Notes under the pieces: generated by a model
The model's input: the letters and a program-made list of their open reading frames with translations, nothing else
What the model was told of the DNA's origin: nothing
Databases searched by the model: none
Position numbers and translations under genes: made by a program
From: Polyangiaceae bacterium
GTDB lineage: Bacteria > Myxococcota_A > Polyangia > Polyangiales > Polyangiaceae
Direction: 5' to 3'
DNA: 27,732 bases
Assembly (NCBI GenBank): GCA_050287085.1
Contig: JBNKBE010000039.1
Location: forward strand, 1-27,732
Shown here: one piece after another, positions 128 to 25,411 of the stretch
How the letters are laid out: every line of letters begins with the position of its first letter
Numbering within the stretch: the first letter of the stretch is position 1

Positions 128-1201
128 TCAACCCGGAAAGGAGCTCTCCGGATCGCCCTCCACAACCAGCTTTCTTAGGTGTACGGCTGCGGCGCCCGAC
201 GTCTTGAAGCACATGCTCACGACGTGAACTCCGCTGATCATGACTCCTCCGGCCGTGCAGCAGCCATTGGCGCAAGTGGGTGTGCCCCCTGGGTAAACAC
301 CATTCGGGAAGAGCTCGGGCAATCGCTCGCGAAAGGCCGCCGAGCCGTGGAGCTGTTCGTAGCGGACTTTGGCTCCCTTCGCGCGGTTTTCGAGCACGAT
401 GAGGGAGCGCGAGTCGAGCAAGTCGTGAGGGGCCAGCGTTTTGCGATCCGAGCGGAGAAACCACTCGTTCATGGTTTCTGCAGCGAGCCGCACCGTTGGG
501 AGCTTGTCGCCGGCGCCTTTCGTGCACTCCACGAACTTGACGTCGCCGGCGATGGGCCGGAAGGCGGGTTCGGCGAGCGCAGCTCCCAGACGTTCGGCAC
601 ACAGTTTACAGTCGGCACGTCTCAACTCACACAGCAGGTCTATGGCGTCGCGGGTTGCATCGGTGGCAGCCAGGGTACGTGCCAAGTTATAGCGCGCGGA
701 GACATTGCCTGGATCGGAGCGGAGCGCGCGTTCGTAAAGCGTTTGCGCAGCTTGCCAATGGCCTGCTTTGGCTTGGGTGTCCCCCTCGTTGTCGAGCGTC
801 TTGGACGCCATCAGTCTCGGCTGCGCCACTGCGCTGCGCTCAAGGGCGGGTATGTTGCGCTTGGAGCTTGCGCTCGTATCAGTCGGCGGGGTGTCGCTCG
901 TGGAGGCGGCGCCCGCGCCTGGGGCCCCGGCGGCTGGGGGGGCAGCGGACTGGGCGCCGCTGCTGACGGTATTTGTCGAGAGCGCGCCGGAGCTCACGCT
1001 CGGAGATGAGGTGCTGGACTCTTCGGATTCGGACTTGCAGCCCAGCAGGCTGACACCGAGCAGGCCGACACCGAGCAGGCTGCGGCTGAGCAGGCTGCGG
1101 CTGAGCACGGTGCTCAGGGCCGAGTTCGCTGACAAGAGGCTCCGATATGGGTTGGCGCGGCGCCCCGGAGCTCCGTCGGTCGAGGTGGTTTTGGTTTTCA
1201 T
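128..1201 (-). CDS. TPR-containing lipoprotein
   Basis: Lipobox-like LLGVSLLG-C, Ser/Ala/Pro linker, then TPR-like DNEGDTQAKAGHWQAAQTLYERALRSDPGNVSARYNLARTLA and a Cys-containing C-terminus. Start placed at 1201 because that ATG overlaps the upstream TGA (ATGA); the ORF track starts at 1210. Confidence 0.75.
   Translation of the reverse strand: MKTKTTSTDGAPGRRANPYRSLLSANSALSTVLSRSLLSRSLLGVGLLGVSLLGCKSESEESSTSSPSVSSGALSTNTVSSGAQSAAPPAAGAPGAGAASTSDTPPTDTSASSKRNIPALERSAVAQPRLMASKTLDNEGDTQAKAGHWQAAQTLYERALRSDPGNVSARYNLARTLAATDATRDAIDLLCELRRADCKLCAERLGAALAEPAFRPIAGDVKFVECTKGAGDKLPTVRLAAETMNEWFLRSDRKTLAPHDLLDSRSLIVLENRAKGAKVRYEQLHGSAAFRERLPELFPNGVYPGGTPTCANGCCTAGGVMISGVHVVSMCFKTSGAAAVHLRKLVVEGDPESSFPG
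1044..1107. repeat. 15-bp in-frame tandem repeat (4 copies plus partial) in a signal-peptide coding region
   Basis: AGCAGGCTGACACCG / AGCAGGCCGACACCG / AGCAGGCTGCGGCTG / AGCAGGCTGCGGCTG; encodes SRSLL-SRSLL-GVGLL-GVSLL on the minus strand. Confidence 0.85.
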
Positions 1202-3684
1202 GGTCGGCATAACTCGTGGTACTCGTTGTACGGATTGGCGCGCCCAGACCCCACCCGTTGTAGGGGGCGGATTGCTTCGGGTGTGGTGCCTTCAAACGTA
1301 AGCACGTCCCAGAAGTACCCGGAACCGCTTGGGGGCGCAAAGCTCTGGCTGTTGCCGTCGGGTCCAACAACGGTGACACGGGCGCCCGTCGCGTTGAAGT
1401 CTTCCGCTGCTTCCTCGTTCTGCTGGGAAAAGTTGTGAACGAATAACGTGTAGGTTCCGGGCATGCCGCGGCTGAGCGTGATTGTTTCTTGACCTGGCCC
1501 CTCCCAGGCGTCGACGTCGAGCAGCGCGTAGGGCACTGAGTCCAAAGTCCCACGGCAGCCGTCGTCGAAGAAGATTTCTTCTCCGTTTGGCAGCTGCAAG
1601 TGCAAGTCGAGGTCCATCGCTTGGGGCTGCTGCCAAGACAGCGTGATGCGTGTTGCACCCTCTCGCGTGGGGGTCAACGCAAGTTGTACGGCACGTCCGT
1701 CCTCCCCGCCGCAGACCGTAGCGTTGGCTCGGGCGGAGTCGTAGCCCTCGGCTTCGGCAACAACCGTATAGCTACCCGAAGGGATGCCGTCAAAGATGAA
1801 CGAACCCTGCGCGTCGGTGAGCGCCTGACCGACAGGCTCGCTCGATACGTTGTCCAGTTCCGGATACAACACGATGGTGGCCTCGGCGACGGCATTGCCC
1901 CCGTTCAGGGCGTCGACGGCAAACCCGCTGAGCGCGCCCTCTGCGGTGCATTGCTCGGCACCCTGCAGGCGGAGTTCCACAATGGCGCCCTCGGCGCGCA
2001 CGGCTACGTTGCCCAGGCCTGACTCGAAGCCTTCGGCCTCGGCCGTGACCGTGTAGTCACCACAGGCCAGATCGATGGTCGCGAATTGTCCGCGCGCGTC
2101 GGTCGTCAGCTCTTGCGGGGTTGCGCCGGCGACGGATACGTGAGCCGCTTCGATACCCGCCCCGCTTGTGGCCTGGAGAACGCTGCCCGCAAGCGAGCCG
2201 GAGCACGAGGGGAGCTCCAGCTGCGGTGCACACACCTCCGCTTCCTTGTTGGGTTCCGAGAAGCGAGCCACGTTCTGACTCTGGGTACCGCGTATCTGTG
2301 CGCACTGCTGGTTCAGGCGATCCGCCTTCGACACACAGATGCCTTGCTCCTCGTCAGCTGGGTCGGCGATGCAGAAAGTAGGGGCCTTGTTGGGGGGCAG
2401 ATCTGGACAGAAGCGCTCGCAGTCCAAGGTGCAGAAGCCCCCGCTGGCCGTTTCGTAGCAGGTGCCTGCCTTTGAGCTACCGTCTGCGAGCGTGAAGGCG
2501 CAGTCTGCGTTGGCGTTGCACGCGTCACCGATGAAACGCCCTTCCCCGTCGTCGCAGTCGACGTTGAGTTTGACGTCGTCGCTGGCTCCGGCGCGCGACT
2601 CGACGACAACGTAGAAGACTTCATTTCCGGCGTAGTCGATGTCGATGCTGGAGTCATCTCCTGCGACGCACCCTTCGGGGGCGCAAGCGCCGCGGAGTGC
2701 GAGCACGTGCCCCGAGCCCTCAATGCTGATCTTGGCCGTTCCGGTACCACGGGGGCTGAAGCGGTAGACAAGCTCTGCTTCGTCTAACTGCGAGAGACCA
2801 CAGGCATAGTTCGCCATGTCCCGGCTCCCGTGCTGTGGCGTGATCGTCGCGCTGTCTTCGCAGTGCAATTCGCCTTGGGGAGCGCACGTCCAGTCTGGGG
2901 CGACGCACGTTGGGTAGCCGATGAAACCTTCGTCGCAGTGGTCGCACTTGTCGCCGCCGTAACCCGCGTCGCAGGTGCAGACGCCTTCGCTGCACGTGCC
3001 GTGGCTCGAGCAGGAATCGGGCGTGCAGGGCGGCTTGTCCTCCACGTCGTTGCGCCGGATAGCGATGTAGTCTGAGCTGAAAGTGCGGCTGTTGTGTACG
3101 ATGCCCCACGAGCAGCCGCGGGCTTCGTACACCCAATACTTGCCACCCGTGTCGAACTTATCGAATATGACGATGTGTCCACCGGTGTCCGCAGCGTTGC
3201 GGTAGACAAGGGCGTCACCGGCTTTGAGCTCATCGCGCGAGATCTGGGTCCAATGCAGCGTCTGCGCGTAGAACGACTTGGTCGTATACGGATGTCCGGT
3301 ATCCGCTTCGACCGCGGAGGGGCTCGGTACCTGCCAGGACTTGGTCACCAGGCCAGAGCAGTCAGCACCCACCTTATCGCTCGGAAACGAGCATTTGGGG
3401 CAGCCACAACTGTCGCAGTCCTTGGAGCAGCTACCTTTTTTTGAGCCGTCTTGGGTCCAGTAGCCAAAGCCCCACTTGTAGCCGTGACCTACCGCCGACT
3501 TGGCCAGATCGATGATCTCGTCACGGGTCATTGATTCGGCCGCGTGAGCGGAGTGGGCTACCAGCAGTAGCGGAAGAGCTAGTAGGAGCCACGGCGTCCG
3601 GAGGCGTAGGAAGACGACGCCGGAGCACCGATGCCGCGTGAGCGAGTGGTTGCCCGCTCGCAAGAAGGGAGTGTTGCTAGTCAT
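1198..3684 (-). CDS. Secreted NlpC/P60-family multidomain protein (EGF-like, Cys-rich, two carboxypeptidase-regulatory-like domains, YfaP/DUF2135-like C-terminus)
   Basis: Signal peptide ending AHSAHA; NlpC/P60 motifs GxxYxWG, ADCSGLV, GDALVY, GHIVIF, YEA; EGF-like CSSHGTCSEGVCTCDAGYGGDKC; two G-x-V...TDAxGxF...YTVxAEAEG repeats; LSWQQPQAMDLDLHL...LDVDAWEGPGQETI. Exact start uncertain. Confidence 0.85.
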   Translation of the reverse strand: MTSNTPFLRAGNHSLTRHRCSGVVFLRLRTPWLLLALPLLLVAHSAHAAESMTRDEIIDLAKSAVGHGYKWGFGYWTQDGSKKGSCSKDCDSCGCPKCSFPSDKVGADCSGLVTKSWQVPSPSAVEADTGHPYTTKSFYAQTLHWTQISRDELKAGDALVYRNAADTGGHIVIFDKFDTGGKYWVYEARGCSWGIVHNSRTFSSDYIAIRRNDVEDKPPCTPDSCSSHGTCSEGVCTCDAGYGGDKCDHCDEGFIGYPTCVAPDWTCAPQGELHCEDSATITPQHGSRDMANYACGLSQLDEAELVYRFSPRGTGTAKISIEGSGHVLALRGACAPEGCVAGDDSSIDIDYAGNEVFYVVVESRAGASDDVKLNVDCDDGEGRFIGDACNANADCAFTLADGSSKAGTCYETASGGFCTLDCERFCPDLPPNKAPTFCIADPADEEQGICVSKADRLNQQCAQIRGTQSQNVARFSEPNKEAEVCAPQLELPSCSGSLAGSVLQATSGAGIEAAHVSVAGATPQELTTDARGQFATIDLACGDYTVTAEAEGFESGLGNVAVRAEGAIVELRLQGAEQCTAEGALSGFAVDALNGGNAVAEATIVLYPELDNVSSEPVGQALTDAQGSFIFDGIPSGSYTVVAEAEGYDSARANATVCGGEDGRAVQLALTPTREGATRITLSWQQPQAMDLDLHLQLPNGEEIFFDDGCRGTLDSVPYALLDVDAWEGPGQETITLSRGMPGTYTLFVHNFSQQNEEAAEDFNATGARVTVVGPDGNSQSFAPPSGSGYFWDVLTFEGTTPEAIRPLQRVGSGRANPYNEYHELCRP

Positions 3685-5170: not shown

Positions 5171-6336
5171 AGGCGGGGACCGCCAGCGAGGAGTTCGCAA
5201 ACCTGTCGCACCGCACCGTTGCCTCCGCGCGCGGGGCAAACCCAAGTGGCCACACCCTTGACTCGCGGATCGGCGTCTTCTACGGCCACCGCGAAGCCGA
5301 CGGCCTCCATGCACGCGATGTCGTTGATGTCGTTGCCCACGTAGGCGCAGTGCTCGAGGCGCACGCCGCGGCGCTGGGCCCATTCTTTCAGGGCTGGCAG
5401 CTTGTCGTCGACGCCCTGAAGGCATTCGAGCTTCAGCTTCTCGCAGCGCCGAGCGACGACCGGATTTCGCTCCTTGGAAAGCACCAGGCAGGGAAGTTGG
5501 CGAGCCGCGAGCAGACCGAGGCCCAGGCCATCTCGGCGCGACGCTCGCACCATCTCCCGTCCCTCTTGGTCCACGTACACGGCGTCGTCGGTCATGACGC
5601 CATCGAAGTCGAAGACGACGCCGTCGATCGGAGTTGGCATCCGCTGCGCTACCGCGGCCGCATCGAGCAACCGCGCCATGGCGCGGGCCGTATCGAGTTC
5701 GATGGGATCGTCGATCTCCAGCATGCGGCTGGGGTCCATTTCACAGCCGACGACCTTTCCGAAGAACCGAAACTGGGCTTCGAGGAAGCCGCGGGTCCGC
5801 AGGATGTAGAATGCTCCAGTTTCTACAAAGCGGTCCGCGAGTTCTTGCCGCCGTGGTCGGCGCGAGGGATCGTGACCGATGGCGCTCAGCTGTCCATCAT
5901 CCTGCATCTGCCACTGGAAGCGATGGTGCTGAGCTACAGCCACGCCCACGTCGGCTCCGCTCGTCCTCACGCGTTCCATGCCGAGATCGAGCTCCGACGC
6001 CAGCAGGAAAGGTGATGTCGGCTGCAAGAAAGCGAGCCAATCGGGGAGCGTGCCGGCGGCTTCCCATTGGGAGCAGGCATGCAGCAAAGCGGCTTCGGAC
6101 GACGCCGTATCGCCGCTCAGGGCCGCGGGGCGCTCGATGACGTTGGCGCCCGCACTCCGGGCGCACGCGGCGATCTCGTCGTCGTCGGTGCTGACATAGA
6201 CGGCGTCGATGCTACGTGCCGCAAGCGCTACTTCCACGCTGCGTGCGACGAGGGGAATGCCTCCCACGCGTTGTAGATTCTTCCGCGGAATACCCTTGCT
6301 ACCGCCACGGGCCGGGATGATGGCGAAGACGCTCAT
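5167..6336 (-). CDS. Acylneuraminate (CMP-nonulosonate) cytidylyltransferase fused to a KdsC/YrbI-type HAD phosphatase
   Basis: N-terminal AIIPARGGSKGIPRKN, VSTDD, LQPTSPF, ETGAFY, EIDD; C-terminal VVFDFDGVMTD, RDGLG, YVGNDINDI, GGNGAVRQVCE. Confidence 0.93.
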   Translation of the reverse strand: MSVFAIIPARGGSKGIPRKNLQRVGGIPLVARSVEVALAARSIDAVYVSTDDDEIAACARSAGANVIERPAALSGDTASSEAALLHACSQWEAAGTLPDWLAFLQPTSPFLLASELDLGMERVRTSGADVGVAVAQHHRFQWQMQDDGQLSAIGHDPSRRPRRQELADRFVETGAFYILRTRGFLEAQFRFFGKVVGCEMDPSRMLEIDDPIELDTARAMARLLDAAAVAQRMPTPIDGVVFDFDGVMTDDAVYVDQEGREMVRASRRDGLGLGLLAARQLPCLVLSKERNPVVARRCEKLKLECLQGVDDKLPALKEWAQRRGVRLEHCAYVGNDINDIACMEAVGFAVAVEDADPRVKGVATWVCPARGGNGAVRQVCELLAGGPRL

Positions 6337-6500
6337 GAACCGCTTGTACCAGAGCGGGCCCAGCTTCGGAAACGCCTATTGTCCGTCCGCGGGCGGCATG
6401 ACCCGCGAGCCTGCCGCGTGCGAAAGCCTGGAGAACGTGTAGAGCAGCAGTGGGTGATGGAGTATTCAGCGGAGTGCTGCGCTCGCGTCGGCGCAATGCA

Positions 6501-8486
6501 CTAGGAATCGGTTAGCAAAGGCGCTTGGGCGCGCACTATGCCATGAGGCAGCTTGGCCAACATATCCCCTTTGCCCAGCAGCGTTTCTGCGCCCTTCTGG
6601 TCGAGAATGATGCGCGAGTCCACGAGCGCACTCACCTGAAACGCGATGCGTCCGGGGAGATTGCTCTTGATTTTGGAGGGGATAGTTTCGCGACTTGGGC
6701 GTTGGGTCGCGAGCACGACGTGGATGCCCGCGGCCCGCGCTTTCGAACCCAAACGAGCAATTCCGTTGCAGAACTGCTGCTCGCGGGCCTTGTCCGTCAA
6801 TAGGTCTTGGAACTCGTCGATGACAAGCACGCGTCGTTCCAGCGCTACGTCCGGGCGCGCTTCATTGTACTCTTGAATGTCGGTTGTGTTTTCGTCCGCA
6901 AATAGCTGGTAGCGCTCCTCCATGAGCTCTATCAGCTGCTCTATCAGTGGTAGCGTTTCCTCGGCGTCGAAGGAAATGGGCGACTCCAAGTGGGAGGCTA
7001 TCGACGAGCGAAAGGTGGCGCCGGTAAACGTGACGCGCTTGGGGTCGATCAGGTTGAAGCGCAGACCTTCTGGGCCGTGGTAGCGGACCAAAGAGCCAAG
7101 CAGGCTCTGAAGAAAGACGGATTTCCCGCTGCCGGTTTGCCCCGCCACCAGAAGGTGTGGGGTGCCGGCATCCGCGAAGTCGCCGACCACGACCTTTCCG
7201 GTGGGCTCTTGTCCAATGACGAAGCGACCCGGGCGTGCGGCGAGCCACTCTGCTTTGTCATCCAACAAGGGCCCAAGGTAGACGTTGCGGGGTGTCTTGC
7301 GGGTCACCGAGAAGCGACGGTGGCCACCGGACTTTTCGTAGCTGAGCTCGACTCCGAGCTCGCTTGCCAGACGATGTTGCACGTCTTGCGCCGCGCGGTC
7401 GAGCGCGGCAACGGTTCCATGCTGGCGTGAGACCTCGATCAGGTAGGTACGCGGTCCCACAACGGGTTTGCGAGGTGCCACGGCGGCGGCACCCAGTTGC
7501 CGCAAGGCCGATAAGATGTGCTCGCGGATGCGCTCCGCTTCTTCGACACCTTCGCGATCCGTCAGCGGATCGTGAGCTTTGGGCGCATCGGATTCGGCGA
7601 TGCGTTCATCACAAACGACATTGCGCGGTCGTTTGCCAGCAACCGGAGGGTCGTCCCGATGCGCAACGCGCGCTGGGTAGTGTCTGGCGCAAGGCGCCGC
7701 CATCGGGCAAGTGGCGCATAGGTCACGGCGGGCGGTGGCCGGGGCCGTGAGCGGAGCTTGTGCCCAGGCGACCATGTGCCCCAGCGTGGGAGCTAGCTGA
7801 ATCGCAGCGACGGACTCGGCGGTTTCCGCCGGCAGTCGCGTTTCCCGCAGCATAGGCAAGAAACGCAACACTGTGGCACGGGCCTCCGTGCCCTCCGACA
7901 AGGATAGTAGCCGTTGGTACAATACAGCTTGGGCCTGATCCAAAGGTTCGTTGGCCTCGTCAGTTAGCTTGTATTCGATCACTTCGTAGCGGCCGTCGCG
8001 AGTGCGGAAAATCGCGTCTAGGCGACCGTGGATCAACGGCCCTCCAGGCCAAGCGGCCTCTACGGCCCGTTCTCCGCTGTAGATGATGGCGCGAAGCGCT
8101 TGTGCAGGGGCTGTCTGCAGAGCCGCGATGCGACCTGCCAAGTGGCGTGCGAACTCCCGCAATGCCTCCGCCAGGTCGTCTACCTCCGCTGGGATACTCC
8201 AATATCCTGGGTCGGCTCCAAGCTCCTCCCGCAGATAGCTTGCGGTCCAGCGAGTGAGAGCCTCTTGTACATCGTCTACGGGGGTAGCGGCTGGGAGGGT
8301 CGCGAAGTAGTCCGGGGGAGACGAAACGGCTCCGGCGAAGCGATCGACCAGGCGATGGAAGGCTGAACCCAAACAAGAGGAACCAACCGGGAAGGCCACC
8401 GCCTTGTCTTCCAGACGCCCCAGGGCAAAGATGCGTGGGCAGCGCAATGCGTTGCGGACCTCGGTGACGCTGACTCGTTCGCTCAT
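6501..8486 (-). CDS. Cas4/AddB-like Fe-S PD-(D/E)XK nuclease fused to an FtsK/SpoIIIE motor (alpha+beta domains, no membrane anchor, no gamma domain)
   Basis: Nuclease: RCPR, GSAFH, HGRLD...IEYK, QAVLY, CATCPMAAPC. FtsK: VVGPRTY (alpha-domain-like), PHLLVAGQTGSGKS, IDPK, MEERY, VLVIDEFQD, ARAAGIHVVLATQRP, GAETLLGKGDML. The ATG at 8486 overlaps the upstream TGA (ATGA). Confidence 0.9.
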   Translation of the reverse strand: MSERVSVTEVRNALRCPRIFALGRLEDKAVAFPVGSSCLGSAFHRLVDRFAGAVSSPPDYFATLPAATPVDDVQEALTRWTASYLREELGADPGYWSIPAEVDDLAEALREFARHLAGRIAALQTAPAQALRAIIYSGERAVEAAWPGGPLIHGRLDAIFRTRDGRYEVIEYKLTDEANEPLDQAQAVLYQRLLSLSEGTEARATVLRFLPMLRETRLPAETAESVAAIQLAPTLGHMVAWAQAPLTAPATARRDLCATCPMAAPCARHYPARVAHRDDPPVAGKRPRNVVCDERIAESDAPKAHDPLTDREGVEEAERIREHILSALRQLGAAAVAPRKPVVGPRTYLIEVSRQHGTVAALDRAAQDVQHRLASELGVELSYEKSGGHRRFSVTRKTPRNVYLGPLLDDKAEWLAARPGRFVIGQEPTGKVVVGDFADAGTPHLLVAGQTGSGKSVFLQSLLGSLVRYHGPEGLRFNLIDPKRVTFTGATFRSSIASHLESPISFDAEETLPLIEQLIELMEERYQLFADENTTDIQEYNEARPDVALERRVLVIDEFQDLLTDKAREQQFCNGIARLGSKARAAGIHVVLATQRPSRETIPSKIKSNLPGRIAFQVSALVDSRIILDQKGAETLLGKGDMLAKLPHGIVRAQAPLLTDS

Positions 8487-10585
8487 GGCATGTCCTCCCA
8501 CGCGACGAGGTCGCGACCGAACCACACTACCTGCGGCGCCAAAGCGTGAAGCCCCTCCAGCACGATGGCACGACCGACGCTAGGCTGAGAGCGGCGTAGC
8601 TCTCGAATCACCCGCTCTACGGACGCAACGCGAAGGCGCAATAAGATCGCTTGCAAGTGCGCTTGTGTCGTCAAGCCGGAGACGCGGACGTCTAGGATGT
8701 CGTTGTCTCTTGCGCCGATGGGAGCGCTTACGCTGGATGGCGCCGCGACTTCATCAAACGCTGCGGCTTCGTCAAGCGCCGCGACTTCGTCAAACGCCGC
8801 GGCTTCGTCAAGCGCCGCGGCTTCGTCAAGCGCCGCAGAGCGCTCTCCGCGGAGCGCCGCGAGGGTGCTCCACGTCCCAGGTTGAAGCTCGCTGCGCACG
8901 TAGCCTTGTACTTGTTCCAGGCTGAGCGGCGTGCCGCTGGCGTCGCAGAGGTCTCGCGAGCGCGCTAGCTGCAGCAGCGATTCCAGCGCCAGTAGTTGAG
9001 CGCTTTCATCGCGCGACAGCTCGTGCCAGATAAGATGTGGCTGGGCCATGACCTCGAGTTGCCGTTGCGCGGTGGCCCGCCAGGTCGGCGGAAAGGGGCG
9101 CCACTGCTCTCGCAGCAACACGCCGGGTTCTTTCCTGCCGCGTTGCAGCGCTCTGTTCAGCGCGGCCCCCACCGACTTGGGGTGGGCCTGATGCACGACC
9201 GAGAGCCAACGTTCGCCGGGCCTTGTGGGGTGCAGTTGGATGTAGGCGTCGGCAGAACCGCGCAGTGCGACCGTATCCAGGAACTCGGAAGCGAGCAGAA
9301 TGCCGTCGCAGAGTCGTTCGGGATCGGCGCCCAGGTGGTTTACTTCTGCGCGGTCCAGTTGGGTATGCGCCGTCGCTAGGCATTCCTGCCAGGCTTCGGA
9401 AAGCGCCGCTGCTAGCTCTTCTGGAGCGAGAGATTCGCCGGTTGTCTCAACGCTCGTCCCTCGCTCCAGAATGCTGGGGTTAGTGCCTTCTCGCGCTTCC
9501 TTGAGCGCCGAAAGCAACATGCGGGGTGTAATGCCTGGCCGGGAACACAAGCGCTCCACCTGCTCAGGCGTGAAGGGCCAAGGGAAGGGCTCGTCGGGTG
9601 CATCTAGGCGGTTGCACCAAAGCTCGAGCAACGCACGCGACTGCGCTCGGGTGGGCAGGGCTAGTGCGGACTTGGTCATGACCAAGCGTGATTGTTGCGA
9701 TAGGTTCAGTTGCGGCTGAATGCCCTGTTCCCACTCGCTGTCGAGGGCCATCTGTACGATGGAGAGGCCTTGGGTTGCGTCTACCAGCTCTGCCACCAAG
9801 TTGCCGTATTGTGTTATTCGTTCTTCAGTCTCGCTCTTCTGGATTAGGTTTTCGAGTTGGTCGAAGACCAATACGATGGGGGCGCCGAGCGCCGCCGCCA
9901 CGCCCAAAGTGCGCAGGGCTCGCACGGCCCGAGACTCCTCAAGGGAGCTCGCCGCGCCGATGCGTTCGAGCTGAGCAGGATCGCAATCCTGCCCGCCGAG
10001 CCAGGCCAGCAATGCCCGGCGGTGCCGTGGGGACGCAAACGGAAGCTGCAGCAGGCGGTCGATGAAGAGGTCGTCCAAGCCCGGCAGGAGCTCCAGCAGC
10101 TTGTCAGCCAGTATTTCGAGACGTCGCTTGCGCGCCGGCTCCGGCAGTTCCCGAAACGCTAACAGGTGTGTTTCGGGAAAGTCGGACTGGCCATCTTCCA
10201 AGTAGCCGATGAGCGAACCCACCAGCGCATCCGCTTGCAAGCCGCTGCCGCCATAGGAAGCTTGTGAAAGCTGACTCACCGCTTCCCCGAGGACGTAGAG
10301 GGGGGTGAGCCCCGGGTGCAGCAGCGGTCGGATGTGGACGAATACCGCGCGCGGGCCCAGATGGCGGCGCACTCTTGCAAAGAGGTGGGTCTTCCCTGTG
10401 CCAGGAGGGCCGAGCAATACGAGCGATTCGGAGCGCAGTTGCCGAGGGTCGCTGCGGGCCGCCTCGCGAATGCGCGCGACGTGCTCCTCGATCGCGGCAC
10501 TGGCGTCGCAATTCAGTTCCGGCAAGTCGACGAGAGTCGTGACCCACGGATCGGCGTGTAGCGCCGAGAGAAATGTTTCGGTCAT
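8483..10585 (-). CDS. P-loop AAA+-type ATPase with C-terminal extension ending in a winged-helix-like domain
   Basis: Walker A LVLLGPPGTGKTHL, Walker B IVLVFDQLE, SRL (candidate arginine finger), lid/sensor-2-like PFTPEQV...ITPRMLL; ATGA overlaps at both ends. Confidence 0.85.
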   Translation of the reverse strand: MTETFLSALHADPWVTTLVDLPELNCDASAAIEEHVARIREAARSDPRQLRSESLVLLGPPGTGKTHLFARVRRHLGPRAVFVHIRPLLHPGLTPLYVLGEAVSQLSQASYGGSGLQADALVGSLIGYLEDGQSDFPETHLLAFRELPEPARKRRLEILADKLLELLPGLDDLFIDRLLQLPFASPRHRRALLAWLGGQDCDPAQLERIGAASSLEESRAVRALRTLGVAAALGAPIVLVFDQLENLIQKSETEERITQYGNLVAELVDATQGLSIVQMALDSEWEQGIQPQLNLSQQSRLVMTKSALALPTRAQSRALLELWCNRLDAPDEPFPWPFTPEQVERLCSRPGITPRMLLSALKEAREGTNPSILERGTSVETTGESLAPEELAAALSEAWQECLATAHTQLDRAEVNHLGADPERLCDGILLASEFLDTVALRGSADAYIQLHPTRPGERWLSVVHQAHPKSVGAALNRALQRGRKEPGVLLREQWRPFPPTWRATAQRQLEVMAQPHLIWHELSRDESAQLLALESLLQLARSRDLCDASGTPLSLEQVQGYVRSELQPGTWSTLAALRGERSAALDEAAALDEAAAFDEVAALDEAAAFDEVAAPSSVSAPIGARDNDILDVRVSGLTTQAHLQAILLRLRVASVERVIRELRRSQPSVGRAIVLEGLHALAPQVVWFGRDLVAWEDMP
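8741..8836. repeat. 18-bp in-frame tandem repeat (5.3 copies) inside the ATPase gene
   Basis: Plus-strand unit CGCCGCG(G/A)CTTCGTCAA(G/A); encodes AALDEA-AALDEA-AAFDEV-AALDEA-AAFDEV-AA. Confidence 0.95.
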
Positions 10586-11445
10586 GGGGTAGCTTCCGCT
10601 CTCAGGCGCACCCAGCTAAGAGGCAGGTCGTTTGCGCCACGTGGACATAGGGCTGCATCGGCGTCACTGAGGCGACCGAGACCCCCCTCCGGTCTCAGCT
10701 CGACCTCTCCGGCTTCATGGGCTTCGAGCAGCGCCGCGCGAACGTCCTCAGAGCTGGCTTGGGGGCGCAGCCGGCGGCTCACCATCGGGACGCTTGCGAG
10801 GCCCGAGTCTTCGTCCCGTTCCGCCATCACGGCGCCGCGCAGGGCTTGGCTCAGGGAGGGAGTCCCAAGGGGGAGCGCGGGTCTCGGAGCGGCGGGAGCG
10901 GGCGTGGTTGCCTGGCTCGCGCACACCGAGGTCAGCTCCGCGAGTGCCTGTTGCGCGTCCGAGAGCAGTATGCTGGCACCGGCGCGATCTGAGCGCGGCC
11001 TTTTGAGCCAGTCACCGAGTTGTTTGACCTGGTCAGCCAGGGCCATCAGCGCCTCTCGTTCCAGGACCCGCTCGCTCGGGGGCACCAAGGTGGGAACCTT
11101 GCCGCGATAGACCAAGTGCATGGCGCCGCTTCTGGCCAGTTGTTGCGCGATTTTTTTGGCTTCCGTGGCGCTGACGCCGCCCAGGCGCTTGCGCAGGTCG
11201 CCGACGGCCACCGCATGGCCGCTCCTTGCTAGCTGTTGTCCTTGGAGCTCGGGTTTGACGCGAACTCCGGTTTTTGTCTTTTCATAGCCTTCACCGATGA
11301 GCCGCTCGATAACCGATGTGCGAATGCCCGCTTTTCCAAGCTTGCTACTGGTAATGGCCCCCCTTTCTTCCAGGGTGCGTCGAGCCCTCTGAACCACCTG
11401 TAGGATTTGTTCCTCATGGTTCGCCCCCTTGCGCTTCTCCGCCAT
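10582..11445 (-). CDS. Basic hypothetical protein, probably several winged-helix domains (C-terminus reminiscent of cyanobacterial RcaD-like proteins)
   Basis: Lys/Arg-rich helical segments followed by short beta hairpins; C-terminal GLASVPMVSRRL...SEDVRAALLEAHEAGEVEL...LSDADAA...PLSWVRL. Start 11445 preferred over 11499 because of the promoter. The family call is from memory only. Confidence 0.6.
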   Translation of the reverse strand: MAEKRKGANHEEQILQVVQRARRTLEERGAITSSKLGKAGIRTSVIERLIGEGYEKTKTGVRVKPELQGQQLARSGHAVAVGDLRKRLGGVSATEAKKIAQQLARSGAMHLVYRGKVPTLVPPSERVLEREALMALADQVKQLGDWLKRPRSDRAGASILLSDAQQALAELTSVCASQATTPAPAAPRPALPLGTPSLSQALRGAVMAERDEDSGLASVPMVSRRLRPQASSEDVRAALLEAHEAGEVELRPEGGLGRLSDADAALCPRGANDLPLSWVRLRAEATP

Positions 11446-11454
11446 GTGTCGGCG

Positions 11455-11483
11455 AAGATACGCTGCCCCGGGCGACGTGTCAC
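11455..11483 (-). promoter_or_regulatory. sigma70-like promoter for the wHTH-ATPase-nuclease/FtsK operon
   Basis: GTGACA (11483-11478), 17-nt spacer, TATCTT (11460-11455), then 9 nt to the ATG at 11445. Confidence 0.55.
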
Positions 11484-11696
11484 CCCTCGTCTTGTCCATT
11501 TGAGAGTCAGCGAGCTCCTACGCGCGGCGCGTGTGATGGACGGTGGTTCAGGGGGACCAGCGATTCTGGTGCAATTCGGACTTCGCTGAGCCCGGTCCCT
11601 ACGACATCTGGGCGCCTTGAGGGGGAACGATGAAATCTCGCTACGCCGACCCGCGCACGGCGGCAATGACCGAGGAACAAGGAGGGGCGAGCCATG

Positions 11697-12092
11697 TCAT
11701 AGTAGCTGCAGGGCGCGTGCCTCGTCTTCATGAAAGTCGACGTGAAGGTGGTTTCCGTCGGGGTCGACCAAGTTGACTTGGCAGATCTTGAAGTCTCGAA
11801 TGAAGGCGAGTTGGTACTCGACGCTGGCGCCGTTGAGCTGCTCCAAGAATGTCTTCAGATCGTGGGCGCTGAAGGCGAAGTGTTCTAGGTGCAGGTTTTC
11901 ATCTGCTGAAGGGGGCGCATCGACTTCGATGAAGTGAACGACGGCGCGCTCGCCGCAGTACATCCAGGCGCCGCCAAAGGGGAATGCGGGGCGCGCCCCG
12001 GCTCGGAGCCCGAGCACCTCTGAGTAGAAGCGTCGCATTGCTGCGAGTTGAGCCGTTCTCACATTCACGTGATCAAGTGCGACTAGAGGCAT
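11697..12092 (-). CDS. VOC/glyoxalase family protein
   Basis: LDHVNVRT...RFYSEVLGL, GAWMY, LEHFAF, DPDGNHLHV; ATG at 12092. Confidence 0.9.
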   Translation of the reverse strand: MPLVALDHVNVRTAQLAAMRRFYSEVLGLRAGARPAFPFGGAWMYCGERAVVHFIEVDAPPSADENLHLEHFAFSAHDLKTFLEQLNGASVEYQLAFIRDFKICQVNLVDPDGNHLHVDFHEDEARALQLL

Positions 12093-12120
12093 TGCGGCGG
12101 GTATAATCCGCGGAAGCAAT

Positions 12121-12858
12121 ATGGTCTACAGACACCTCTGCCGCGTCACGAGCCTGCGGATTCGTCATGGGCTGCTCGGGCTCGTCATCGCTGGCGGGGG
12201 CGCTTGCTCACCCCCGCACCAGCCCGCTGCGCCCGCCCCGCTACCCTTGCCGAGGAGCGTGCCAGGTCTGCTCCGCCCGTCTCCCGGCGTACCTTTGGAC
12301 GACAACGCAGGGACCGGAAAGGCGGCAAAGGAGACCGCCGATGAAGCGCCGTCACCGGAGCAGCAGCTTCATTTTGAGGACGTCCTGCCAGAAGCAGCGG
12401 ACCCCGCAGCGCTTGCCTGCAGCGGTGCGTCGATTGTGGCTGGAACAGCGCTGCATGCCGTCAATCTCTGTGACCTATTGAGCGCAGATAGGGCGCGGAA
12501 GCTGAGCTCTGACAACCCGCTTCGGTACGAGCTCATTGCGGCGTGGTACGCCGATATTCGGCCCACGTGGACGGCCGCGAACGCCTCGCTATGCGCCGGG
12601 GAAGAGGCGGTGCTGCTTGTAAACAAGTACGCCGACGAGGTGGAGCCGGCTCGACAGTGCGTTCAGCTGCGCTGCGTTTCGAGCTTCCCGCCGGACCCCG
12701 TTCACATCGGGAAGAACGGCGAGTTTTGTATTTCCCAGGCTGCAACGTTTGAGCGTTGGACGGTGGCTCCGGGTCGCGTCGAAGCTCACTACCGTCATGG
12801 TACGGATGTCTGGCGCATCGTTGGCGTGGGGGAAGACTACCAGTTTATCAAGCGCTGA
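12121..12858 (+). CDS. Hypothetical exported protein/lipoprotein
   Basis: Hydrophobic stretch ending GGA-C, Pro-rich linker, Cys-containing C-terminal domain; TATAAT at 12102-12107 just upstream. Confidence 0.6.
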   Translation: MVYRHLCRVTSLRIRHGLLGLVIAGGGACSPPHQPAAPAPLPLPRSVPGLLRPSPGVPLDDNAGTGKAAKETADEAPSPEQQLHFEDVLPEAADPAALACSGASIVAGTALHAVNLCDLLSADRARKLSSDNPLRYELIAAWYADIRPTWTAANASLCAGEEAVLLVNKYADEVEPARQCVQLRCVSSFPPDPVHIGKNGEFCISQAATFERWTVAPGRVEAHYRHGTDVWRIVGVGEDYQFIKR

Positions 12859-15287: not shown

Positions 15288-15407
15288 GCCACCGAAGCGG
15301 GGCGCCAGGTTGACTTCACGGTCGCCGCGCCGGCCGAGCGATGCGAAACGGCTTTTCGCTCGTGCACGGTGCTTGCGCTCCGCGCCGCGGAGGGCTCAAT
15401 TGCGTGT

Positions 15408-15953
15408 GTGGCACGGCCAGCGACCCTATTTCGAGTTAAGCTAGAACTGTCCGATGTCGATCGCGGCGTGTATGAGAGCTTGGATGTGCGCTTGGCTCAG
15501 CACCCATCCGAGGACGAGACGCGACTCGTTTGCAGGTTACTGGCGTACGCGCTGCTCTACGAAGAGGGTTTGGAATTTGGGCGTGGGTTGTCGGACGCAG
15601 ATGAGCCGGCACTATGGGTGCACGACCTGACCGGCAGGCTGCTGCATTGGGTGGACGTAGGCATCCCCAGCGCCGAGCGTATCCACACCGCTAACAAGAA
15701 GGCTGAGCGGCTTACCGTCGTGTGTCATAAGGGGAAAGAGGCGCTTGCTCGCGAGATGAGCAAGCGCTTGGTGCATGGCGCTGGCGATATTCGCGTGCTT
15801 TATCTAGAGCCCGCCTTTGTGGCGCAGCTCGCAGAGGTGCTCGAGCGCAACGTCCAGTGGACCGTCGTGCGCGTGGAGGGTGAAGTGAGTGTAATTGCGG
15901 GAGCGCACAGCTTCTCTGCGACGGTAGAAGAGGGAGCTCTGCCCATAGCGTGA
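15408..15953 (+). CDS. yaeQ: YaeQ family protein
   Basis: MARPATLFRVKLELSDVDRGVY...LAQHPSE...RLLAYAL...FGRGLSDADEPALW..DLTG....WVDVGIPSAERI; probable GTG start at 15408. Confidence 0.92.
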   Translation: MARPATLFRVKLELSDVDRGVYESLDVRLAQHPSEDETRLVCRLLAYALLYEEGLEFGRGLSDADEPALWVHDLTGRLLHWVDVGIPSAERIHTANKKAERLTVVCHKGKEALAREMSKRLVHGAGDIRVLYLEPAFVAQLAEVLERNVQWTVVRVEGEVSVIAGAHSFSATVEEGALPIA

Positions 15954-21020: not shown

Positions 21021-21722
21021 ATGCACCTCATGGAACCCGATAGCGATTGCGAAAGATTTCGGATCCTGTCGGCCGGAAAACCCCCTGGCGCTGTGCGCAC
21101 GGCTCAGCAGGAGCTATACGCGCGTCATGCGGGCTACCTGCTGCGGGTTCTTCGTGGTCCTCGAGGTCGCTTGCTGGCCCATTGTGAGATGGGCGCTGAG
21201 GACCTAGTGCACGAGACTTTCGTCAGAGCCTTTGAGCGCGCGGACAGTTACCGTTGTCTCAACTGGGGCAGCGTTCAGCCGCCGTCTGGCGCGGTGGGGG
21301 GTGTTTCTGCAGTCAGAGAGGAAGAAGAACGCCTACGCACCCGAGCCTGGCTTGGGCGCATCGCGGAGCGCTTGCTTGCGGATGCCCTGGCCAAACGTCG
21401 TGAAGTCTCTGGCTCTTTGGACATGGTGGAGTTTTCCGAGGCGGCGCCACCTTCCAGCGGCTCGAGCCAGGCAGTCTTGGTGCGAAGGGCACTGCTGCAA
21501 CTGGATGAACGTGAACAAGATGTCTTGCGAATAACCGCGTTGTATCATCGGGTTGGAGAAAAGCATCAGCGGCTCCCAAACGACGTGGTTCGTGAATTGG
21601 CGGCCCGCTGGAACATCAGCGGCGCCAACTTGCGCGCCATTCGCAAACGCGCGCTCGCGAAACTGCGACGGAATCTGGAGGCCGCCATGCAGCAACCCCA
21701 CGCCGAGGATGGAGCGTCATGA
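21021..21722 (+). CDS. ECF-type sigma-70 factor
   Basis: Region 2 AEDLVHETFVRAF...RAWLGRIAERLLAD; region 4 VRRALLQLDEREQDVL...ELAARWNISGANLRAIRKRALAKLR; TAAAAT at 20992-20997. Confidence 0.9.
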   Translation: MHLMEPDSDCERFRILSAGKPPGAVRTAQQELYARHAGYLLRVLRGPRGRLLAHCEMGAEDLVHETFVRAFERADSYRCLNWGSVQPPSGAVGGVSAVREEEERLRTRAWLGRIAERLLADALAKRREVSGSLDMVEFSEAAPPSSGSSQAVLVRRALLQLDEREQDVLRITALYHRVGEKHQRLPNDVVRELAARWNISGANLRAIRKRALAKLRRNLEAAMQQPHAEDGAS

Positions 21723-22897
21723 GTGACGAAAAGGTTCGTCTTAGCGATGAGCAACTCGAGGAGCTGCTTGGTCGCGCTTTGGCCGACGATATGATACCCA
21801 CTACGCCTGAGGCTGTGCGCCGAGCTGAGCAGTCTGGCGAAGAAGCGATGGCGCCCAGAGCTCCCGCGGAAGGGTTTCCTTCTCCGGTGGAGGGGGCTGT
21901 GGGCGATCCCGAGAGACCAATGGCGGACGTGTCCACAGGGGCGAGCCAGCGCCCGGGTCGAGTCGTCGAGCTCCGGCCAGCGCCGGGCACGCGCCTCTAC
22001 CCGGCACTCCGGGCGGGCGTGGTGGGGGCAGCTCTAGGCGTTGCCGCCACTCTAGCGCTTGCGCCGCGCGGAGAGAACACGCAGTGGATCGGTCCCGAGA
22101 CGGGACCCGGCGCGACCGTCCCGAACTCGGGCGAGCCTCCGAAGGCAGCTCTTGACCTCAGCATGAGCTGCCCGGGTGAGTGTTGCGCCGGCTCCGGCTG
22201 TGCTGTTGCCGCGAAGGCCTGCGCTTCGGAGCGCACGTGTGTTCCTTGTCAGCCGCAACCAAAGGGGCGCTACCGCCTTCAGGTGGGCGACATGACGTGG
22301 GCTAGGGACCAGCTGAGCACGGACGAACCCGCGCCGCGCCTATGCGTCAGGGTGGGGCGTGATGCAGAGCAATGCCTAGACGCGGTGACCGTTGAAAGTC
22401 CGGAGCCGCCGTCCGCGGGCGCTCCATCCGCCTGGCAGGTCACGTCCGGGAGCTACAGCGCAGCGCAGCTTCTCAGTGGCACACAACTGCGTTTGAGGCG
22501 CCAAGCGAACTCACAGTTGGTTGCGGAGTGGTCTCGGCAGGTCGCCATCACGACCGATACCCTTTGCAAAGGACTGAAGGTTGAACTGAGCGATGCGGAG
22601 GGCAAGGCGGTGGCTGCCGTCTCGGTGTTCCTGTTGGACGCACACTTCGTTGAACTGGAACGGGCGTCTTCTGTGGGGCCTCTGCTCAGGAGCTTGACCC
22701 ACCTGGGGGGGGCCAAGAACGCTTCCCTGAAGATCTACGAGACCCGGGCCGAGGGAGCCGGTCGTTTCGTGCTCACCCTGGGTCCCCTGGACTTCGACTC
22801 CAGTGAGACTTTGCGTTGGAGACTGCTAGATGCGGGGCTTTCGCCGCAGCTGACCCTGGGTAGCGACTACCTGGGGGAGCCCAGGGTTGGGGACTGA
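21719..22897 (+). CDS. Probable single-pass anti-sigma factor with Cys-rich extracytoplasmic part
   Basis: ATGA overlap with the sigma gene; acidic N-terminal helix, TM-like GVVGAALGVAATLALA, CPGECCAGSGC...CASERTCVPC, beta-rich domain, possible SPOR-like end. Confidence 0.7.
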   Translation: MSDEKVRLSDEQLEELLGRALADDMIPTTPEAVRRAEQSGEEAMAPRAPAEGFPSPVEGAVGDPERPMADVSTGASQRPGRVVELRPAPGTRLYPALRAGVVGAALGVAATLALAPRGENTQWIGPETGPGATVPNSGEPPKAALDLSMSCPGECCAGSGCAVAAKACASERTCVPCQPQPKGRYRLQVGDMTWARDQLSTDEPAPRLCVRVGRDAEQCLDAVTVESPEPPSAGAPSAWQVTSGSYSAAQLLSGTQLRLRRQANSQLVAEWSRQVAITTDTLCKGLKVELSDAEGKAVAAVSVFLLDAHFVELERASSVGPLLRSLTHLGGAKNASLKIYETRAEGAGRFVLTLGPLDFDSSETLRWRLLDAGLSPQLTLGSDYLGEPRVGD

Positions 22898-25199: not shown

Positions 25200-25411
25200 A
25201 GAGCAGAACACGGGGCTTTCTGCTCGTTCCGGCGCCTGCACCAGCACCGATTGGCGGTGGCGCTCGCTTTCGGCTGGCCCACGTCTCGTGCTTGGTCGAA
25301 GCGCTCGGAGCTGAGAGCCGATCTCAATGCGCCTCTTGGAGTCCCCATGAGACGCCCCGTGGTCGCTTGTCGGGGTTCCACTTATCTGCGATCCTAGATA
25401 GGCTCCAGGGC

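Follow-up and report, generated by a model that had tools for sequence, protein, structure and literature searches.

Gene neighbourhoods that couple an Orc/CDC6 ATPase to a nuclease and a DNA motor have been described, by comparative genomics only, as Orc/CDC6-coupled "HerA/FtsK capture" neighbourhoods (Nucleic Acids Res 2024;52:1005, PMC10853773 section 22). In these, the Orc/CDC6 ATPase always has an inactive restriction endonuclease (REase) domain inserted between its AAA+ core and a C-terminal domain of the winged helix-turn-helix (wHTH) type. It is accompanied by an active REase, by a HerA/FtsK ATPase that in one subset follows an FtsKα domain captured from cellular FtsK, and by a separate, fast-evolving protein that carries 2-4 wHTH domains and is kin to DndG, SspB or the DNA-binding domain of FokI (PMC10853773). 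The domains are combined in one or several polypeptides, and the authors, who use the term "mobile gene neighbourhoods", proposed an anti-invader role in which the motor and the HTH domains direct the system to the invader's DNA as this is segregated, transferred or packaged, and pump it to the nuclease (PMC10853773). The same recurrent association is restated in passages of a 2026 paper (PMC12839542). Here we analyse a cassette of three genes, g1, g2 and g3, in a stretch of 27,732 b from a Polyangiaceae bacterium; this stretch, hereafter the window, is the entire contig C39 of a 6.2-Mb genome in 160 contigs.

The cassette is a real, intact and accessory unit and belongs to this computationally predicted class. 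Our preferred reading is that it is, like the rest of the class, a counter-invader system with a role in defence, and we put the probability of this at about 0.6. The original prediction, made from the letters of the window, had seen a winged-helix protein, an AAA+ ATPase and an Fe-S nuclease-FtsK fusion, and had not recognised the trio as a named system. The latter statement does not hold, since the trio matches the published Orc/CDC6-coupled capture class: a check against named systems gave no full-length match in PADLOC, but the architecture is already laid out in section 22 of PMC10853773. The functional sketch given in the original prediction agrees with the published hypothesis. The genes, their domains and a promoter-like site are placed as follows.

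11455-11483, minus strand: sigma-70-like promoter match GTGACA-N17-TATCTT, a consensus match only
10582-11445, minus strand: g1, 287 aa from the ATG at 11445 (open frame 10582-11499, 305 aa)
8483-10585, minus strand: g2, 700 aa
9431-10585, minus strand: g2 residues 1-385, Orc/Cdc6/TnsC-like AAA+ core and lid (Walker A K65, Walker B D242/E245)
8906-9343, minus strand: g2 residues 415-560, inserted α/β domain, as judged from DSSP of the model and conservation
8741-8836, minus strand: 18-nt tandem repeat in g2, about 5 copies with 83-100% identity, coding for an AALDEA/AAFDEV linker before the C-terminal winged helix
8492-8704, minus strand: g2 residues 628-698, C-terminal winged helix
6501-8486, minus strand: g3, 661 aa from the ATG at 8486 (open frame 6501-8525)
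7617-8486, minus strand: g3 residues 1-290, RecB/Cas4-type PD-(D/E)XK nuclease with four conserved cysteines
7287-7559, minus strand: g3 residues about 310-400, FtsKα-like domain, assigned indirectly via a homologue
6501-7268, minus strand: g3 residues 407-661 and stop codon, FtsK/SpoIIIE motor (Walker A K455)

Three minus-strand open reading frames (ORFs) form a chain in the ORF listing of the window, and the start codons at 11445 (g1) and 8486 (g3) are favoured by database gene calls and by homologues. The chaining by ATGA, which had been placed at 10582-10585 and 8483-8486, is seen in a direct reading of the DNA (10585-10582 for g1/g2 and 8486-8483 for g2/g3), and these overlaps of stop and start codons suggest translational coupling of the cassette genes. 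A Shine-Dalgarno-like GGGAGGA lies 7 nt upstream of the g3 ATG at 8486.

The product of g3 is a nuclease joined to an FtsK motor. Its N-terminal part is recognised as PDDEXK_1 by Pfam (9.6e-17, residues 4-266), and D157, E171xK173, Q186xxxY190 and Cys16/257/260/266 are conserved in at least 95% of 40 homologues, as are Walker A (449-456) and Walker B (555-560). With its motifs intact, the REase is active-looking. The four conserved cysteines suggest that the nuclease is of the Fe-S type, so that of the predicted Fe-S nuclease-FtsK fusion the two domains stand, and the iron-sulphur part depends wholly on these cysteines. Residues ~310-398 align to a stretch of a Planctomycete homologue that Pfam calls FtsK_alpha (1.1e-7); in g3 of the window itself Pfam made no FtsK_alpha call. 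The motor (Pfam FtsK_SpoIIIE 8e-34, residues 407-598) is closest to cellular FtsK, with E. coli FtsK 2ius as the best PDB match (4.5e-40), and NCBIfam FtsK matches g3 at 3.3e-43 with 147.7 bits against a cut-off of 1566. The protein is without the membrane part and without the γ domain of FtsK, the chain ending where γ would begin. A separate FtsK frame of 903 aa is found in the same genome, on contig C12.

As predicted, g2 encodes an AAA+ ATPase: AAA_16 scores above the Pfam cut-off, and Walker A (G59-T66) and Walker B (D242-E245) are intact and invariant in 42 sequences. The claim that all Walker and nuclease motifs are intact was thus borne out in both genes. Searching PDB sequences with the g2 profile gave P-loop-level matches only, with E values of at least 0.17. 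Between the AAA+ core and the C-terminal wHTH, which is present as the class description requires, sits an insert (~420-545) with the element order α-β-β-β-α-β-α-β-α, which we take to be the order of the PD-(D/E)XK core. The insert has no conserved D...(D/E)xK in the 42-sequence alignment. It is a candidate for the inactive REase domain of the literature, as suggested by the model. An hhalign comparison of the insert (residues 415-560, 42 sequences) with the g3 nuclease profile indicated no relation (probability 0.4%), and its look-alikes in the Atlas were unnamed hypothetical clusters only. A VIA-align structure search with the whole 700-residue model was taken up by AAA+ matches and gave no fold match for the insert. 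The repeat-encoded linker has pLDDT (predicted local distance difference test) values <50 at residues 603-632, and the region is mostly gapped in homologues.

No family was found for g1 in Pfam (0 matches), NCBIfam or PADLOC, and the predicted winged helix accordingly lacks sequence-family support, but the structure model and the fold matches agree with it. The AlphaFold model (pLDDT 88.9, from a 19-sequence alignment) has three helix-strand units of the winged-helix type, joined by long helices. Foldseek matches are to multi-winged-helix proteins, namely 8iue_P (E 2.1e-4), UFL1/DDRGK1, SelB WH2-4, MarR and ESCRT-II; going partly by entry titles, we take the matching chains to be tandem winged helices. 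Their TM-scores are low, which a flexible chain of small domains would lead one to expect. Borne out by the model, g1 is best described as a tandem winged-helix protein. DndG, SspB and the DNA-binding domain of FokI are absent among the Foldseek PDB matches listed, and the Atlas look-alikes of g1 are unnamed hypothetical clusters only. In the alignment the N-terminal part is variable, and the C-terminal domain carries an invariant ELRPEGGLGRL...C...LSW motif.

This conserved end of g1 is also the part predicted to contact g2. Modelling of the complex, which the original prediction had proposed, was run for g2 with g1 and scored 0.75 in 3/3 runs, against 0.01 for the best of 3 controls. The 0.75 mark is reached by 116/157 solved complexes and by 2/215 mismatched pairs, a calibration that applies only approximately to this prediction, which was run with our own alignments. 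The runs have at least 87% contact agreement and a partner pLDDT of at least 75. Confident contacts involve g1 residues 211-282, centred on the invariant 249-259 loop, and g2 residues 56-61, 245/248, 281-288, 302-313 and 348-356 (invariant PGxTPR; P350-R355), so that the predicted interface touches the edges of Walker A and Walker B of g2. The modelling supports, but does not show, docking of the conserved C-terminal domain of g1 on the ATP-site face of g2, a face on which one would expect a neighbouring AAA+ protomer to dock. The three genes also differ in rate. Over 40 trio loci, g1 has a median identity of 32.7% to the window, g2 one of 38.9% and g3 one of 51.0%, and the order g1 < g2 < g3 is found in 38/40 loci, the two exceptions having a short g1 alignment only. 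That g1 evolves fastest of the three fits the expectation for a specificity subunit.

The cassette is accessory and patchy within its family. Among 121 sampled genomes of the family, 13 (counting G000) hold a nearly full-length g3 as a single piece, 1 has it divided between two contigs and 2 have part of it, the remaining matches being housekeeping FtsK at residues about 530-660. Matches to g2 at E <= 1e-40 occur in 21/121 genomes, with weak matches in 9 more, and matches to g1 in 19/121; the matches to the three genes are adjacent and colinear. The weak g2 matches represent a second, divergent subtype with the same layout. Each of the sample genera labelled g1, g5, g20, g28 and g30 (genus labels, not genes) has one carrier and one non-carrier, and the patchy distribution looked for by the original prediction is thus seen down to the level of the genus. 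In a phylum sample, scored for only 2 candidates per genome, g2 was found in 7/401 genomes, 6 of them in the family of the window counting G000; without G000 the tally is 5/28 in that family, 1/6 in another family of the class and 0/366 elsewhere.

A scan of species genomes with the g2 profile gave 75 loci, which were classed by six-frame hidden Markov model (HMM) searches. They are mostly from Polyangiaceae or Myxococcales metagenome-assembled genomes (MAGs), with some from Kofleriaceae, and carriers in culture include Polyangium fumosum DSM 14668, P. jinanense SDU13, Polyangium sp. 15x6 and Sorangium sp. So ce513. The conserved order g1-g2-g3, adjacent on one strand, is found in 47/75 loci, as had been anticipated. 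A further 13/75 are compatible with this order but cut by contig ends: g2-g3 with an upstream contig end (5), g1-g2 with g3 cut at the nuclease domain (2) and g1-g2 followed by a contig end (6). Four loci are of a Planctomycete type, complete in 3 (Pfam: PDDEXK_1, FtsK_alpha, FtsK) and cut by a contig end in 1, and 3 have g2 without a recognisable g1. The remainder are 7 loci in which g1-g2 has no g3 within at least 4.3 kb downstream and 1 locus in which g2 is fused directly to the FtsK part with no nuclease (L087).

These last forms are natural variants of the cassette. The pairs without g3 (L092, L097, L098, L102, L103, L104 and L109) are followed by unrelated genes (an MFS transporter, a Ser/Thr kinase, unknowns), and the genomes G030, G062, G067 and G117, the places of L109, L098, L097 and L092, have only a housekeeping-type FtsK match to g3. 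A further such pair (L033) is present in G057. In L087 (8962-11817) a 951-aa protein joins g2 to the FtsK part, the nuclease domain missing, and in L112 (5730-9674), which belongs to the divergent subtype and to a 16-Mb genome, g2, nuclease and FtsK form a single chain of 1314 aa. Decayed copies also occur, with frameshifts in L073, L077 and L086 and a deletion in L070 (Polyangium sp. y55x31, about 7885-11810), where g2 breaks off at profile position 427 and g3 sets in only at profile position 140, which implies an internal deletion across the g2-g3 junction. The g3 orthologue at G049:C87:19871-21859 (L012/L023) has one in-frame TGA, which could reflect a pseudogene, a sequencing error or read-through.

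Outside the phylum, full trios were found in two Acidobacteriota MAGs, and the four Planctomycete loci are divergent. Against 1.84 billion representative proteins the g2 profile has 184 matches at E <= 1e-30 and 768 at E <= 1e-10. A tblastn search with g2 of 72,556 plasmid records gave one weak match, which led to a homologous trio on the plasmid NC_019690.1 of Pseudanabaena sp. PCC 7367 (L110, 133-8938), a conjugative megaplasmid (MOBQ, MPF_T). In this trio the g3 homologue is full-length (28% identity, E 7e-63) and its companions are a P-loop protein of 680 aa and a protein of 266 aa; the trio adjoins genes for a 1060-aa DEAD/DEAH (SNF2-like) helicase and a SWIM zinc-finger protein. A phycobiliprotein lyase gene comes next, which is of interest beside the cyanobacterial RcaD/RcaG pair considered below.

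The surroundings of the cassette differ between genomes: at 20 related loci no predicted protein beyond the three cassette genes matched a window protein (E <= 1e-5). In a survey of ±3 genes at 22 distinct trio loci (132 proteins, Pfam and PADLOC), a credible defence gene was found at 8/22 loci, a count for which there is no background control and from which enrichment is not claimed. These neighbours are a GmrSD-like gene (L037), a WYL-WCX regulator (L040), an adjacent full-length type IV restriction enzyme (mREase, 6e-225; L044), Cas8g and Cas3g together with a WYL gene (L054), Uma2/PDC-S03 (L060), Uma2/PDC-S03 together with WYL (L065), an adjacent ZorD/DpdE-like SNF2 helicase (L066) and PDC-S70 (L068). 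PADLOC matches to generic domains were discounted, namely ABC ATPases (mad3), Ser/Thr kinases (PD-T4-6), a σ54 activator (RtcR match) and a cysteine desulfurase (SspA/DndA match). The defence-island neighbours that the original prediction had hoped for are thus present at some loci but not at the other 14. The WYL proteins of L040 (2141-3187) and L054 (6918-8024) are encoded directly upstream of g1, whereas in L065 (14059-15117) the WYL gene is the third one downstream of g3. A WCX domain is present as well in the proteins of L040 and L065, and an HTH domain in the L040 protein. Adjacent WYL proteins may be regulators of the cassette.

In the window itself, the cassette stands between a gene for a cytidylyltransferase-HAD fusion and a glyoxalase gene, the unrelated metabolic genes of the original prediction, and its GC content is not distinct from the surroundings. 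The promoter-like site has 9/12 consensus positions, and there are 2 such sites in 5.6 kb against 0.6 expected from shuffles; the predicted single sigma-70-like promoter is therefore real as a consensus match but weak as evidence of a promoter of the cassette. From the end of the -10-like hexamer to the g1 ATG it is 9 nt (11443-11483), with no Shine-Dalgarno-like run in between, so that a real promoter at this place would give a g1 mRNA with little or no leader.

What the analysis shows is the order of the genes, the identity of their domains, motifs that are intact, an accessory distribution and a model-supported g1-g2 contact; a trigger, a loading step, a DNA target and the defence phenotype itself we infer, along the following lines. 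The DNA-recognition subunit would be g1, with three winged helices and a fast-diverging N-terminal part, its conserved C-terminal winged helix holding the nucleotide-binding face of g2. The latter would be an Orc/Cdc6/TnsC-like AAA+ switch with a degenerate nuclease-fold insert and a winged helix of its own. On meeting foreign DNA (phage, plasmid or conjugative; replicating, entering or packaged), g2 would bind ATP, assemble on the DNA and recruit or load g3, a soluble FtsK hexamer, blind to FtsK-orienting polar sequences (KOPS), with RecB/Cas4-type Fe-S nucleases. This hexamer would then reel in double-stranded DNA and cut it, so that the cassette would act as a sensor, a loader and a translocating nuclease. 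One further possibility, which we consider rather doubtful, is that g1 places its conserved C-terminal winged helix as a cap over the face with which g2 binds nucleotide and oligomerises, keeping g2 as an auto-inhibited 1:1 sensor. Binding of invader DNA by the variable winged helices of g1 would take the cap off, g2 would polymerise at that place, like TnsC and MuB, and load the γ-less FtsK-nuclease hexamer for processive shredding; where a genome has g1-g2 only, the same switch might act through the FtsK of the cell or some other effector instead. If true, such capping would be a new self/non-self logic that needs no DNA modification.

Several points weigh against a defence role. No PADLOC model (PADLOC-DB v2.0.0) matches g1, g2 or g3 over its length, the matches being at the level of domains only (the SspH C-terminus, mad8, and weakly Cas4 and HerA), and no experimental study of any member of the class was found in the literature searched. 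All testable features of the class are present save the REase fold of the g2 insert, which is unconfirmed. As had been noted from the sequence, no methylase is encoded in the cassette, nor is a self-marking gene, so that by the original prediction self/non-self discrimination would have to rest on structure or a trigger. Among 20 flanking ORFs of the window, 0 are defence- or mobility-related in a Pfam scan; the window is without a tRNA gene; and no convincing direct or inverted repeats flank the cassette in 5800-12400, the best inverted pair being 31 nt at 71%. Elsewhere, 14/22 flank sets are without a credible defence neighbour, in a survey that without its background control does not show enrichment, and the 132 flank proteins hold no integrase and 1 transposase-like gene, and they point to no route of mobility. 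The cross-phylum occurrences in MAGs could be binning errors. Finally, the presence of g1-g2 without g3 in 7/75 loci implies that the nuclease motor is dispensable for the role of g1-g2.

Some of these points fit other explanations. AddAB and HerA-NurA are established end-resection machines, and the cassette may be an accessory repair or recombination machine of this type, a fused HerA-NurA/AddAB analogue in which g3 resects or processes chromosomal double-strand ends and g1 and g2 target lesions or stalled forks. Such a function would suit the ordinary chromosomal genes that flank the cassette in the window and the trio of L062, directly downstream of an AddB-like/AddA-like pair, and RecB/Cas4-type Fe-S nucleases as well as FtsK/HerA motors act in end resection (see also PMC12977600). 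It is nevertheless unlikely: a patchy distribution, discordant within genera, and variable neighbourhoods are unlike a core repair function, g1 evolves faster than g2 and g3, and AddAB adjacency is found at 1/22 loci, against restriction, CRISPR or WYL neighbours at 8/22. An origin in mobile elements would have g1 and g2 recognise the origin of the element, and g3 nick and pump its DNA for transfer or segregation, the cassette being such machinery or its recently domesticated remnant. FtsK-like TraB acts in actinomycete conjugation, and g3 has a weak match to NCBIfam TraB (3.2e-9, 35.9 bits against a cut-off of 800). The trio on the conjugative Pseudanabaena plasmid, the presence of the cassette in several phyla and the very term "mobile gene neighbourhoods" (PMC10853773) point the same way. 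What makes this quite improbable is that in the window the trio has no gene for an integrase, a relaxase, replication or mating-pair formation beside it, that one transposase-like gene is all that the surveyed flanks contain, that always the same 2-3 genes are found in unrelated contexts, and that the plasmid records gave a single weak g2 match.

The pairs without g3 would be accommodated if g1-g2 were a DNA-binding regulatory pair, acting on transcription or chromatin in the manner of the cyanobacterial DNA binder RcaD and ATPase RcaG, g3 being an optional addition. RcaD (CAC39267) is described as a DNA-binding protein of 285 aa whose C-terminus is its most conserved part, and the ATPase gene rcaG follows its gene (PMC2799420). 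By this description its size, C-terminal conservation and gene order would resemble those of g1-g2, and a homologous trio lies on a cyanobacterial plasmid. However, the g1-equivalent of that trio matches the g1 profile weakly (hhalign probability 10%, E 0.003), and an intact nuclease-translocase, kept in 47/75 loci, would be superfluous to a regulator, which we therefore regard as very improbable. In abortive infection, the same parts would, once triggered, degrade the host chromosome and kill the infected cell. A cassette without methylase or self-marking gene and a motor that lacks γ, and hence sequence guidance, would serve this end, and toxin-antitoxin-like pairs (DUF433 with DUF5615, and PIN) lie near the trio in L037, L040 and L058 (3/22). 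A variable winged-helix subunit favours specific recognition over indiscriminate activation, and we see only a slim chance that the cell is the target. Defence against invading DNA thus stays our preferred reading.

Several elements are added by this analysis: the survey of Polyangiaceae with its natural variants, the gradient of evolutionary rate over the three genes, the model-supported g1-g2 interface at the active-site face of the ATPase, and the persistence of g1-g2 without the nuclease motor. As the class is absent from PADLOC-DB v2.0.0 and no laboratory test was found, any demonstration of its function would be the first. A methylase-free, ORC-like switch coupled to a chromosome-segregation motor would show that foreign and self DNA can be discriminated by means other than DNA modification. 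Material for testing is provided by nature in the form of 47 intact trios, motor-less pairs, a nuclease-less fusion, a fully fused polypeptide and cultured carriers, and the predicted g1-g2 interface offers point mutants that are directly testable.

Other genes of the window are mentioned for completeness. An ECF-type sigma factor gene (Sigma70_r2) overlaps the start of a family-less gene of 392 aa by 4 nt (21021-22897), and together they may form a sigma/anti-sigma pair. The large products encoded at 1198-3684, 22928-25162 and 25292-27157 are typical of myxobacteria and probably secreted. They are a protein with CarboxypepD_reg repeats and teneurin-like EGF, a sulfatase carrying a MopE metal-binding motif, and a TTR-like protein of the teneurin kind. 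A YaeQ gene lies at 15369-15953.

In comparison with known systems, the likeness to TnsC, MuB and BrxC is a sequence similarity to the P-loop of g2 only, and no transposase or BREX genes are adjacent. HerA-NurA, Sir2-HerA and DUF4297-HerA share with the cassette the principle of an FtsK/HerA-superfamily motor paired with a nuclease or other effector. In these the nuclease is of another family and is not fused, the Orc-like ATPase and the winged-helix partner have no counterpart, and PADLOC HerA matches g3 only around the P-loop (best 8.8e-7, residues 439-469). With the Cas4, AddB and RecB nucleases g3 has in common D...ExK...QxxxY and a one-plus-three cysteine pattern, but here the nuclease domain is fused to a translocase. 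An identity with Cas4 was rejected (TIGR00372 15.5 bits against a cut-off of 65; PADLOC Cas4 E 0.003-0.013), and a Pfam scan of 23 window ORFs gave no CRISPR/cas genes. Cellular FtsK has the α and β motor domains of g3, which in turn is without the N-terminal membrane domain, the linker and the KOPS-reading γ domain and adds an N-terminal nuclease; a housekeeping FtsK was rejected on these grounds, g3 starting with a nuclease and ending at β, and on the presence of the separate FtsK on C12.

DndFGH and SspFGH are alike in having a REase followed by a C-terminal HerA/FtsK motor in DndH/SspH and, in DndG, a triple-wHTH partner. The PADLOC SspH model matches g3 residues 440-660 at 2.2e-54 with its profile positions 1535-1755 of 1766 only, and over the SspH models it is the C-terminal 220-260 positions that match, against g3 residues 397-660. 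DndH/SspH are of ~1700 aa, compared with 661 aa for g3, which is without the helicase-C, target-recognition (TRD) and inactive methylase domains, and no DndF-like kinase or dnd/ssp modification genes lie beside the cassette; identity with DndH/SspH was ruled out, as the full multidomain core is lacking. The predicted docking of the C-terminal winged helix of g1 on the ATP face of g2 does not appear in the capture-class passages of PMC10853773. Among the systems compared it is this class that the cassette matches. The two share an AAA+ ATPase of the Orc/Cdc6 family, which has an insert between its core and the C-terminal wHTH, an active-type REase, an FtsKα-FtsK motor and a multi-wHTH protein. 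Variable fusions are common to both, here in the form of L087 (no nuclease), L112 (1314 aa) and the motor-less pairs, and the cassette has the mobile, patchy and conflict-gene-associated distribution of the class.

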